Positions 2,332 through 5,761 of a DNA stretch of 64,000 nucleotides are shown one piece after another. This stretch comes from Candidatus Binatia bacterium (GTDB lineage: Bacteria; Desulfobacterota; Binatia; UBA9968; JAJDTQ01). Below the pieces are notes generated by a model. The model searched no databases and was not told the origin of the DNA. It saw only the letters and a program-made list of their open reading frames with translations. The translations under genes were made by a program, and so were the position numbers. The stretch spans positions 1,440,001 to 1,504,000 of the forward strand of contig OY762897.2 of the NCBI GenBank assembly GCA_963666515.2, written 5' to 3'. Position 1 is the stretch's first letter; the number at the start of each line of letters is the position of its first letter.

Positions 2332-3297
2332 ATGCTGGCAAGCCCCATCAGAGGAATCATCGGCGCGGCGCTGACCCCGTTCACGGACGACGGGAAGGTC
2401 GATTACGACGCCCTCGCGCGCGAGATCGAATTTCTCGTGGCCGACTGCGACGCCATCTCCGTGGTGGCCGTCGAAGCCTCGGAATACACGGTGCTGTCCC
2501 TCCAGGAGCGCAAGGAGGTCATGGGGCGCGCCACCGAGATCGTCAACAAGCGCGTGCCGGTCATCCTCGGGGCGTCGAGCCATTCCATCGAGACGGTTCT
2601 CGACCTGGCGGACCATGCCGCCGCGGTGGGCGGCGACCTCATCCAGGTGCTCATGCCCATCCGCCCGTGGGGAGGCCAGCCCACCATCGCGGACCTGGTG
2701 CAATTCTTCACCGAGGTGGCGTCGGTCAGCCCGCTGCCCATCGTCGCCTATCACAACCCCGGCCCGGGCGCCGATCCGCCGCTGGACGCCTTCGTGCGGC
2801 TGAGCGAGCTGGAGAAGGTGGACTACTTCAAGGAAAGCTCGCGCGACATCACCAAGATCACGCGACTCATCGAGCAGGTCCACTTGGCCGGCAAGGCCAA
2901 CTACTTCACCACCATGCAGCCGCTCTTGACGACGCTCATGATGGGCGGCGCCGGCGCCACCATGCCGCCGCCGGGCACGCGCATCGGCGCCAGGGTGGTG
3001 CGCGCCTTCCGGGAGGGCGACATCGACAAGGCGCGCTACTGGCAGCGCTGTTTCACGTTGTTCCCGGGAAAGTGGGGCGCCTACGGGCTGCCGCCGATCA
3101 TGAAGTCGGCGCTCAAGCACTTCGGCGTGGACATCGGCGATCCGGCCCGGCCGTACGCTCCGGTGAATCCTCGGGACCATGCCCAGATCGGTCAGTTCCT
3201 GGGCCAGATCGGCATCCTGGGGGACGCAGAGCCGGACGAAGCGGCCTTCGACCAGGCCGCGGACCAGCTTGCCCAGGAAGACACCTTCCTTCGTTAG
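2332..3297 (+). CDS. Dihydrodipicolinate synthase-family aldolase/lyase
   Basis: ALTPFTDDGKVD, YHNP and Schiff-base KESS motifs. Confidence 0.85.
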   Translation: MLASPIRGIIGAALTPFTDDGKVDYDALAREIEFLVADCDAISVVAVEASEYTVLSLQERKEVMGRATEIVNKRVPVILGASSHSIETVLDLADHAAAVGGDLIQVLMPIRPWGGQPTIADLVQFFTEVASVSPLPIVAYHNPGPGADPPLDAFVRLSELEKVDYFKESSRDITKITRLIEQVHLAGKANYFTTMQPLLTTLMMGGAGATMPPPGTRIGARVVRAFREGDIDKARYWQRCFTLFPGKWGAYGLPPIMKSALKHFGVDIGDPARPYAPVNPRDHAQIGQFLGQIGILGDAEPDEAAFDQAADQLAQEDTFLR

Positions 3298-3303
3298 GCG
3301 CCC

Positions 3304-3513
3304 ATGTCCGGCGGACTGTTCACGTGGATCGCGGAGCCGATCAAGGCATGCTCCGATTTTCTGGTGCTGCTCCTGATCCGCGGCACTTCGCGGTTCGAGT
3401 CCGAGCTGACCGAGGAAGGGCGGCAGGAACAGCGCATGTGGCGGGACCGCCGCATGCGCAGCCTCAAGGGCCTCGCGCTTCGCGCCAGGCGGCGACAGCA
3501 GAAGGCTTCCTGA
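3304..3513 (+). CDS. Small hypothetical protein
   Basis: Fills the operon gap with GC-typical codon use; no recognisable motif. Confidence 0.4.
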   Translation: MSGGLFTWIAEPIKACSDFLVLLLIRGTSRFESELTEEGRQEQRMWRDRRMRSLKGLALRARRRQQKAS

Positions 3514-3547: not shown

Positions 3548-4705
3548 ATGCACTACCACAACGGACGCAAACAGATCGTCGTGCTCGGCGGCGGCAGCGG
3601 CGGCGTCGTCGCCGCCACCAAGCTCGGCCGCGCCCTGGGAGCGGACCATGACGTGATCCTCATCGACCGCCGGGCCGATCACGTCTTCATGCCGGCGTTC
3701 CTGTTCCTGATGGTGGGGCAGCGGCGCCCCGAAGACATCACGCGGAAGCTCAAGCGCCTGGAGAAACGCAACATCCGGGTGCTCCAGGCCGAGATACTGG
3801 GGATCGATCCCGCCCGCAGGCAGGTCATCCTCGAAAGCACCGCGATCCCGTACGACTACCTGATCGTGTCCCTGGGCCTCGACGTCAGGCCCGACCTGCT
3901 TCCCGGCTTTGCCGAAGGCGCTGACCACCCCTGGGAGATGGACGCGGCCGTGCGTCTCAAGAGCACCCTCGACGGTTTCCGCGAGGGCCGCGTGCTGGTG
4001 GGCATTCCGCAGGGACCCTACCGCTGTCCGCCCGCTCCATACGAGGCCCAGTGGATGCTGGACAGCTACTTCAAGGAGCGGAACACCCGCGACCTGGTGG
4101 ACCTGCAGTACTTCACCCGGGAGCCCGAGCCCGCCGGCGAGGAGCACGTGCCCTCGGTATGGATGGACGCCCAAAGCAAGAAGCGCAACGTTACCATCCA
4201 CTACGACTTCGTCGCGCAGTCCATCGACGCGGAGAAAAAGACGGTCAAGGGCCTCTACGGCTACGAGCTGTCCTACGACCTGCTGATGATGGTGCCGCCG
4301 CACCGGCCTTCCAGGGTGCTCTACGACTGCGGGCTGGCGGAAAAGGAAACCGGCATCCAGGTGGACTACGACACCCTGGAGACCAAGTGGGAGGACGTCT
4401 ACGCCATCGGCGACTGCGCCGACATGCCGGCCTCCAAGGCCGGCGGCGTGGCGCACCAGGAGGCCGACGTGGTGGCGGAGAACCTGGTGGCGGAGATCAC
4501 CGGGGAAGGGGAGCTGTCCACCCTGCACCTGCACACCATATGACTGCTCTCCTGCGGCGCGGGACGCGCCGCCGCCAACCGCACGACGTACCCCCAGGGT
4601 TGGCCGCCCTTCGGCGCCACCAACTCGCGCTCCTGGGGTCCTTCGCGGATGATCTACTGGAGCAAGGTCCTGTTCGAGAAGTGGTGGCTATGGCGCTACT
4701 TCTGA
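3548..4705 (+). CDS. Sulfide:quinone oxidoreductase-like FAD protein, probable selenoprotein (TGA 4541-4543 read as Sec; 385 aa)
   Basis: GGGSGG FAD motif, YRCPPAPYE, YAIGDC; frame continues past the TGA to an SQR-like C-terminal helix (WSKVLFEKWWLWRYF). Confidence 0.8.
4554..4572 (+). promoter_or_regulatory. Putative bacterial SECIS hairpin
   Basis: GCGGCGCG-GGA-CGCGCCGC: perfect 8-bp stem, G-first loop, starting 11 nt after the UGA. Confidence 0.65.
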
Positions 4706-4723
4706 CCTGCTGACGGCACGGCC

Positions 4724-5761
4724 ATGATCGTTCGCGAGCTTAACGGCGAAAGCTGCAAGACCTACCTGGTCGCCGACGAGGACAGGGGACACGCGGTGCT
4801 GGTTGATCCCCTTTACGCCCACGTCGACCGCTATCTCGCGGTGCTCGCGTACCACCGGCTCCAGCTCGACCTGGTCATCGACACCCACACGCACGCCGAT
4901 CATCTCAGCGGGTGCCCGCAACTGCGTTTCCTGGTCGGGTCCCGGTTCGCCATGCAGAAATGGGCGCCGAGCCCGGCCGTAGACGTCCATCTGGAAGAGG
5001 GCGACGTGATCCCCGTCGGCGATCTCGTGGTGCGCGTTCTCCACACTCCCGGACACACGCCCGACGGCATGAGTCTGCTGGTGGAAGGGAACGTGCTCAC
5101 GGGCGACACGCTGTTCATCGGCGGTTCCGGACGCACCGACTTCGCCGGAGGCGACGCCGGCGCCCAGTTCGACGCCGTGACCCGCAAACTCTTCACGCTC
5201 CCGGACGACACCGTGGTCCGTCCGGGCCACGACTACCGCGGCAACACCTCGTCCACCATCGGCCGGGAGAAACAGACCAACCCGCGGCTCGCGAACCGCA
5301 CCCGCGAAGAATACATCGACCTCATGAACAACCTGGGGCTCTCGCCACCTCAGAACATCCAGGAGGTCCTGCAACCCAACCAGTCCGCCCTCGGTTGCGG
5401 AGAGATCAACTTTCCGGACTGGAGCGAGTTGAAGAAGGTCCGCGAAATCGACGTGACCGCGCTGCAAGGGATGATGGCCTCGGAAAACCGCCCGCTGCTG
5501 GTGGACGTCCGCGAGCCCGCCGAGTACTCCGGCGACCTCGGCCATCTGCCCGGCAGCGTGCTGATCCCGCTCCGGGAACTCATGATCCGCCTGGACGAAA
5601 TCGACGGGAACCGGGCCGGTCCCGTGGTTACCGTGTGCCGCGCCGGCATGCGTAGCGCCACCGCCGCGGCCATCCTCGGCAGGTCCGGCTTCACCGACGT
5701 CTCCAACTTGGCCGGCGGCGTCCTCGCCTGGAACGAGGCCGGCCTGCCGGTGGAACGGTAG
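4724..5761 (+). CDS. Persulfide dioxygenase (ETHE1-like MBL fold) - rhodanese fusion
   Basis: THTHADH, TPGHTP, TGDTLF, GRTDF and PGHDY motifs; C-terminal DVREPAE...CRAGMRS rhodanese. Confidence 0.9.
   Translation: MIVRELNGESCKTYLVADEDRGHAVLVDPLYAHVDRYLAVLAYHRLQLDLVIDTHTHADHLSGCPQLRFLVGSRFAMQKWAPSPAVDVHLEEGDVIPVGDLVVRVLHTPGHTPDGMSLLVEGNVLTGDTLFIGGSGRTDFAGGDAGAQFDAVTRKLFTLPDDTVVRPGHDYRGNTSSTIGREKQTNPRLANRTREEYIDLMNNLGLSPPQNIQEVLQPNQSALGCGEINFPDWSELKKVREIDVTALQGMMASENRPLLVDVREPAEYSGDLGHLPGSVLIPLRELMIRLDEIDGNRAGPVVTVCRAGMRSATAAAILGRSGFTDVSNLAGGVLAWNEAGLPVER

Follow-up and report, generated by a model that had tools for sequence, protein, structure and literature searches.

Predicted selenocysteine forms of sulfide:quinone oxidoreductase

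Sulfide:quinone oxidoreductases (SQRs) and flavocytochrome c sulfide dehydrogenases (FCSDs) are the closest described relatives of the gene treated here, and a selenocysteine (Sec)-containing SQR subtype is known from computational prediction. The gene lies on the forward strand at 3548-4705 of a 64,000-nucleotide (nt) stretch of a Candidatus Binatia bacterium genome (contig OY762897.2), referred to below as the window. It spans 385 residues plus a terminal TGA and contains one internal UGA. Our overall reading, which we hold to be very likely, is that it encodes a 385-residue flavoprotein of the SQR/FCSD fold in which the internal UGA is decoded as a catalytic Sec, with sulfide and quinone as the presumed substrates.

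The chemistry of the fold is described for human SQOR. Cys201 and Cys379 of that enzyme hold a catalytic trisulfide. Once sulfide has opened this bridge (Cys379-S-S-S-Cys201), the persulfide on Cys201 engages flavin adenine dinucleotide (FAD), and the sulfane sulfur on Cys379 is passed to an acceptor. The thiolate of Cys379 then resolves the adduct with the flavin, leaving FADH2 to reduce quinone (PMC11039317).

The Sec-containing subtype is represented in NCBIfam by NF049943 (type III SQR, selenoprotein subtype), which a 2026 review tabulates with one Sec and the motif HxxU (PMC13188914). That review refers to the deep-Sep paper (PMC12013277), which reported a new selenoprotein of Desulfosediminicola, an NAD(P)/FAD-dependent oxidoreductase some of whose homologs contain TGA and others Cys. 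An earlier note on this DNA, made from the letters and their open reading frames (ORFs), had proposed the Sec reading and doubted that SQR was a well-described selenoprotein family. The doubt was sound in that the family is not well established, but a Sec-SQR subtype had already been predicted (NF049943, PMC12013277, PMC13188914). The review was the only relevant literature match for selenoprotein together with sulfide quinone reductase. Literature searches returned no report of Sec in Binatia or Binatota and none of an SQR with selenocysteine and UGA; Table S2 of PMC12013277 may list members of the clade described here. A biochemically characterised Sec-containing SQR was likewise not found in the literature. 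The Sec-SQR kind is known already, as a computational prediction of 2025; what is new is a separate, large and systematically mis-called clade.

Reading frame, fold and catalytic residues

The annotated ORF occupies 3548-4543, has 331 codons and ends with ...HLHTI at TGA 4541-4543. Past this codon the frame stays open for 53 further codons (4544-4702; LLSCGAGRAA...FEKWWLWRYF) and closes at TGA 4703-4705, 18 nt before the ATG of the following gene at 4724. The ORF end and the open codons had been placed exactly to the base in the earlier note, and its 18-nt gap and its CPxAPYE motif were also recovered. The motif reads CPPAPYE and contains Cys160, the first catalytic Cys, encoded by TGT at 4025-4027. 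Residues 13-19 (3584-3604) form an N-terminal glycine motif for dinucleotide binding, LGGGSGG, recognised in the sequence; its G14, G16 and G19 are almost invariant among homologs. The DNA around the gene is 63% G+C.

The read-through protein matches the Pfam families Pyr_redox_2 (8.4e-21) and FCSD_central (4.6e-09). Its closest sequence match of solved structure is human SQOR (2e-30), followed by FCSDs and by archaeal and bacterial SQRs. Chain positions 161 and 339 of human SQOR pair with Cys160 and with U332, the residue at the internal UGA; an offset of 40 turns the chain numbers into Cys201 and Cys379. The earlier note had built its proposal on the two catalytic Cys residues of SQR-like proteins, and U332 indeed aligns to the conserved second one. 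Conservation was read from a homolog alignment of 128 rows, consisting of 120 representatives at <=50% identity and the enzyme's own clade. The Cys160 column holds Cys in 117 rows and the U332 column in 110, six of the latter being TGA-to-Cys read-through rows of the own clade. The redox-active Cys pair of the SQR/FCSD family is present, with Sec instead of Cys at the second position.

An AlphaFold (AF2) model of the read-through protein, built on the 128-row alignment, reached a predicted local distance difference test score (pLDDT) of 95.6. A first model, built on a shallow 15-row alignment of close relatives, gave a pLDDT of 52.8 and was discarded. The tail 3' of the UGA is modelled as three strands followed by a C-terminal helix, in which Trp, Phe and Lys are frequent (residues 367-384, about 4646-4699). 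In SQRs, amphipathic C-terminal helices serve monotopic membrane attachment and the quinone site, in contrast to the cytochrome partner of FCSD. Foldseek returned human, Aquifex and Acidithiobacillus (A. ferrooxidans) SQR and FCSD as top matches, with template modelling (TM) scores of 0.84-0.85. The product is predicted to be a monotopic flavoprotein of the SQR/FCSD fold with Sec at the persulfide-carrying catalytic position, and sulfide:quinone activity is its probable function, held with less assurance than the Sec assignment.

Evidence for selenocysteine at the internal UGA

The genome carries the full Sec machinery, one of the points on which the earlier note had let its proposal depend. 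The tRNA-Sec scores 73.1 bits against a cut-off of 47 and has anticodon TCA in ARAGORN. The protein genes selA (586.9 bits), selB (370.9 bits) and selD (381.4 bits) are clustered together (G000:C1:4043412-4047708; loci L009, L010 and L018). The selD gene itself contains one in-frame TGA, in the context ...AAG-U-AAK..., followed by a 9-base-pair (bp) hairpin with a GUC loop; the apical loop begins 33 nt past the UGA. Its element, GGUGCAG-GUC-CUGCACC, is one that we take to resemble the fdhF element of Escherichia coli. The genome is predicted on this basis to hold at least one other selenoprotein gene, namely selD.

The TGA is conserved across relatives, the second point named in advance, with TGC or TGT as the contrary outcome. 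Forty relatives' genomes were sampled, 24 from the own genus and 16 from the order. An ortholog that reaches residue 385 with exactly one TGA was found in 35 of them (22 in the genus and 13 in the order; 10 genera, 3 families), at 67-94% identity and with alignments beginning at residue 1-6 in all but one. A scan of genome contigs, with one genome per species, returned 80 loci. The site is TGA in 70, Cys in 8 distant loci with archaeal labels (30-37% identity), and lies beyond the end of the remaining 2. Of 80 metagenome loci, 79 have TGA there, and the match of the remaining locus, which does not fit the pattern, stops at the contig end.

The tail behaves as coding sequence. Among 87 distinct sequences, the mean pairwise differences at codon positions 1, 2 and 3 are 0.137, 0.108 and 0.477 over the 53 codons, compared with 0.235, 0.150 and 0.550 over the 30 codons before the TGA. 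This pattern indicates that the tail is translated and that purifying selection acts on it more strongly than on the 30 codons ahead of the TGA. A full-length database member, P0006, is 70% identical and has Cys at the site (...HTICLLAFEPGK...). Sec is nearly fixed in the own clade, a single Cys form and a single Asn form being the observed exceptions. The Asn form, P0009 (383 residues, full length), also has CPPALYE in place of CPPAPYE and GPGH in place of GAGR, and may be non-catalytic or repurposed.

Other origins of the internal TGA were considered and rejected. Genome-wide reassignment of TGA is ruled out because the codon works as a normal stop within this operon, where it ends an upstream Haem_oxygenas_2-family gene, a small ORF and the enzyme gene itself. 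A sequencing error or a strain-specific nonsense mutation is ruled out by the 87 distinct TGA-bearing sequences and by the 79 metagenome loci. A frameshift is ruled out as well: the in-frame tail is the conserved one, and the other-frame tail of the database protein P0007 is low-complexity and rich in Arg and Pro. The change of frame in P0007 (398 residues) comes about 23 residues ahead of the UGA site, and this protein is apparently a product of faulty assembly or gene calling.

The alignment to Cys, the Sec genes and the conservation of TGA all support the earlier proposal that the second catalytic Cys is Sec. We are highly confident that 3548-4705 is a selenoprotein gene, a judgement in which selenium insertion itself is deduced from these genomic signs.

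A very small hairpin downstream of the UGA

In E. coli, the fdhF-type selenocysteine insertion sequence (SECIS) is a stem-loop that follows the UGA closely and at constant spacing; its apical loop contains a G, and a minimal form functions when placed 11 nt past the UGA. The enzyme gene has a SECIS-like hairpin at 4554-4572 (5' arm 4554-4561, GGA loop 4562-4564, 3' arm 4565-4572). RNAfold reproduced the perfect 8-bp, GGA-loop structure reported in the earlier note, with the 11th nt past the TGA as its first base. It shares with the fdhF type the stem-loop 3' of the UGA, the G in the apical loop and the 11-nt spacing, but differs in being a plain G+C stem of 6-8 bp with an NGGNC or GGA loop and no evident bulged U.

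Across the clade, the core consists of 6 bp (4555-4560 with 4566-4571) enclosing a 5-nt NGGNC loop (4561-4565); two added pairs bring the stem to 8 bp in the own genus. The core pairs are formed in 81-82 of 82 sequences, and the core is present in all 79 TGA-bearing metagenome loci. Frame, tail and stem are retained together in the 87 distinct TGA-containing sequences. All 14 one-sided changes in the core are C-to-U and keep a G.U pair.

Codon usage in the stem is unusually constrained at third positions. GGC encodes Gly+5 in 86 of 87 sequences and CGC encodes Arg+8 in 82 of 83; Ala+9 uses GCC in 81 of 87 (GCT in 5), and Phe+4 uses TTC in 34 of 37. Elsewhere in the stretch, codons for Gly, Arg and Ala have entropies of 1.39-2.35 bits, and the two third positions located in the loop vary freely (1.8 and 1.6 bits). 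Stem bases are kept, or still form G.U, where Arg+8 becomes Ser (AGC) or Ala+6 becomes Val (GTG). Judged from this pattern, the hairpin is under selection as RNA. It appears to dictate the amino acids GAGR of its own coding stretch, a peptide that reads EPGK in the Cys form P0006, and GPGH in P0009 as given above. A metagenome scan with P0006 did not recover the contig of the Cys form; the best match was 76% identical. The flanks of the UGA are conserved as well: the Ile codon 5' of it is ATA in all 79 sequences with Ile there, whereas other Ile sites are mostly ATC, and the base 3' of it is C in 80 of 82, giving the context AUA-UGA-C (4538-4544).

Relationship to NF049943 and to characterised SQRs

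NF049943 is the best NCBIfam match of the read-through protein. The alignment runs end to end, with enzyme residues 8-377 on profile positions 1-381 of 406. The Sec falls at the same site and in the same motif, HTIU here and HxxU in the review table. HTIU shares alignment columns with GH[SA]NC of the Cys-containing members that pass the model, and H-x-x-C occurs there in P0148, P0180, P0192, P0203 and P0259. Five Cys-containing representatives pass, at 533.8-627 bits, and are about 30% identical to the enzyme (30% for P0192). The enzyme scores below the cut-off of the model and shares only this degree of identity with the proteins that pass, and it is therefore assigned to a separate clade that the model misses. 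The Sec form of NF049943 and the clade described here are alike in being computational predictions.

The clade differs from NF049943 in its surroundings and its records. Its conserved neighbours are a gene of the dihydrodipicolinate synthase (DHDPS) family and a small ORF. Its public records come mostly from metagenome-assembled genomes (MAGs) of Candidatus Binatia and 'Deltaproteobacteria', and are called as proteins of 329-331 residues. P0158, a 330-residue representative that is 51% identical to P0192, ends with ...FDGHAT one residue before the Cys of GHSNC, and is probably a truncated call of the known NF049943 Sec form.

A FastTree tree places the own clade (8 rows, support 100, stem 0.76) among Cys-containing lineages, outside the clade of 39 rows (support 100) to which the NF049943-passing rows belong. 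The Cys form P0006 is nested inside the own clade, and P0009 branches first. The tree is quick and unrooted, its length filter removed truncated Sec forms, and the known family was treated by protein only. Within that frame it hints weakly that Sec was gained twice at this position and was once replaced again by Cys.

Human SQOR (type II; PDB 6oi5 among others) resembles the enzyme in fold (TM 0.84) and in the alignment of its Cys201 and Cys379 with C160 and U332. It differs in sequence, at 21-22% identity, and in having Cys rather than Sec, and the bacterial enzyme is shorter, with a different C-terminus. The characterised type III SQRs of Caldivirga maquilingensis and Methylacidiphilum fumariolicum SolV are the nearest SQR type by NCBIfam naming. 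The SolV operon includes TusA and DsrE2, whereas neither stands beside the enzyme gene.

Proposed mechanism

In the mechanism that we propose, UGA 4541-4543 would be decoded as Sec by the SelA, SelB, SelD and tRNA-Sec of the genome, with the short G+C-rich hairpin 11 nt downstream directing the decoding. Sec332 would replace the solvent-exposed catalytic Cys (human Cys379), and its partner Cys160 (human Cys201) would lie beside the flavin. By analogy with human SQOR, sulfide would open an Se-S(-S) bridge, and the Cys160 persulfide would hand electrons to FAD and thence to quinone. Because it occupies the Cys379 position, Sec332 would by the same analogy carry the sulfane sulfur to an acceptor and afterwards act as the resolving nucleophile for the flavin adduct. 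In the model, the Trp-rich C-terminal helix would anchor the enzyme on the membrane.

In established selenium chemistry, a selenolate surpasses a thiolate both as nucleophile and as leaving group. It should favour both the carrier and the resolving roles in this enzyme, with a presumed catalytic benefit.

Points against the reading and alternative explanations

Several findings weigh against a Sec-containing SQR. Three residues past the catalytic Cys most homologs have Glu (81 of 128), and the own clade has Ser or Ala. The NF049943 score is 254.5-254.6 bits against a cut-off of 525. The neighbours shared across the clade are the DHDPS-family gene and the small ORF, not genes of sulfur oxidation. 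For the hairpin, the 76-nt stretch folds no better than its shuffles (z = -0.12; 87 of 200 shuffles equal or better), and stability was dropped as evidence. Covariation was dropped too: the six core pairs contain no compensatory double changes and shuffle controls were not exceeded, a signal that cannot appear because each free third position pairs with a protein-fixed base. An Rfam scan of 4450-4760 gave no family, only chance-level matches (E >= 3). The hairpin is also unlike the selD element, with an apical loop that starts 18 nt past the UGA rather than 33.

The alternative that survives best accepts the SQR-fold selenoprotein and gives it another task. The enzyme would act in vivo on a different sulfur or selenium substrate, or with a different electron acceptor, together with the DHDPS-family enzyme and the small protein. 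We consider this unlikely on balance, but worth serious attention. The gene neighbourhood, counted over 104 related loci, bears on it. The DHDPS-family (class I aldolase-like) gene (2332-3297; PF00701, 3.1e-32) is adjacent in 89 of the 104 loci. A conserved 69-residue ORF lies directly upstream of the enzyme gene (3304-3513), with tblastn matches in 85. Both are on the forward strand, and their adjacency extends to loci labelled Acidobacteriota and Chloroflexota; in the Chloroflexota-labelled L101 and L103 the DHDPS gene stands on the other side of the enzyme gene, downstream. The small ORF runs without a stop and in frame into the GGGSGG start of the enzyme in four loci labelled Acidobacteriota (L096, L108, L109 and L119), where the fused small-ORF region spans about 1975-2970. 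This continuity looks like a natural fusion of two proteins. Neither the DHDPS gene nor the small ORF found a match in the 8 archaeal loci that have the Cys form. The long stem of the own clade and the missing Glu point the same way.

Against this alternative, the enzyme retains both catalytic positions, the FCSD_central domain and, as modelled, the SQR C-terminal helix, and the top structural matches are SQRs and FCSD. A gene for a metallo-beta-lactamase-fold and rhodanese fusion, persulfide-dioxygenase-like, follows the enzyme gene at 4724-5761 on the same strand, 18 nt downstream. A protein of this kind is the usual partner that consumes the persulfide product. The gene adjoins the enzyme gene in 27 of the 104 loci only, those of the own genus, where it lies downstream on the same strand, and L036, L038 and L046 from another family of the order, where it is convergent. 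It is adjacent in two lineages with differing orientations, which tells against another substrate, and the synteny with the DHDPS-family gene and the small ORF can be explained by shared descent or cassette transfer, with no common function needed.

A broader version of the other-task reading joins these observations. The clade would be a second Sec-bearing SQR-like lineage, in which Sec was probably acquired separately, and the enzyme would be the catalytic part of a three-gene module in an undescribed persulfide/selenium-aldolase pathway. We regard this joint reading as doubtful, more so than the change of substrate taken by itself. If true, a module of the enzyme, a DHDPS-family enzyme and a small helical partner would be widespread in uncultured soil bacteria. 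Its real role would link persulfide or selenium chemistry to an aldolase-type reaction, and would not be plain sulfide detoxification.

It is very improbable that the UGA is passed without selenium, a near-cognate tRNA inserting Trp or Cys, or that two separate polypeptides are produced. In favour of read-through, the C that follows the UGA in 80 of 82 sequences makes a leaky stop context. Against it stand the alignment of the site with the catalytic Cys, the conserved hairpin at SelB-dependent spacing and the complete Sec system with a second selenoprotein gene, selD. Production in two pieces is contradicted by the first Met of the tail, which is residue 368, and by the absence of a start codon or ribosome-binding site directly after TGA 4541-4543.

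A real stop at this TGA, with a truncated 331-residue protein and 159 untranslated nt, is how public gene callers treat the site (117 of the 120 best database matches have 328-359 residues and cover 84-86% of the read-through query, that is, they stop at the TGA) and TGA does end neighbouring genes, but this is the least credible option given the third-position periodicity and stronger purifying selection of the tail, a frame open for exactly 53 codons in 94 loci, the full-length Cys homolog P0006, and a product that would be left without one catalytic residue and the predicted membrane helix.

Significance and distribution of the clade

The reading preferred here, a UGA decoded as Sec at a catalytic position of an SQR-fold enzyme, almost certainly extends to well over 100 related soil-bacterial genes that are listed as truncated. 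Gene callers and NCBI's selenoprotein model overlook the clade. As a result, more than 100 database clusters are listed at 329-331 residues, without a catalytic residue and the predicted membrane helix. Once corrected, the records would give Binatia-labelled bacteria, and related uncultured ones that recur in metagenome records, a common selenoprotein in their predicted selenoproteome. The natural Sec/Cys pair offered by P0006, together with a second, independent-looking lineage, could be used to probe the contribution of selenium at the persulfide-carrying position of SQRs. The very small conserved hairpin would represent a compact natural SECIS within a coding stretch. Of the points left over, the one of greatest interest is the conserved module in which the enzyme gene is joined by the DHDPS-family gene and the small ORF, together with its fusions.

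An even draw of 200 other genomes of the phylum contained no ortholog at E <= 1e-80, and within the phylum-wide sample the clade was found in the own order only. Record titles of relatives are mostly those of Candidatus Binatia, Deltaproteobacteria or Thermodesulfobacteriota MAGs, and some are labelled Acidobacteriota, Chloroflexota or Verrucomicrobiia.

Further features of the neighbourhood

The 69-residue ORF has no Pfam or NCBIfam match and no usable match in the ESM Atlas. Six of its residues (D18, F31, E34, G39, Q43 and W46) are invariant in 27 sequences.

Two further forward-strand genes lie upstream, and their occurrence was counted over 73 Binatia-labelled loci. The Haem_oxygenas_2-family gene, annotated as an 'iron-containing redox enzyme' (846-1604), is present in 48 of these loci, and a putative cyclase gene (PF04199; 1644-2294) in 52. 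Identity among loci is 76-97% for both genes, apart from two outliers at 53-59%. Outside the own genus it mostly exceeds the identity of the enzyme itself, which is about 70%.

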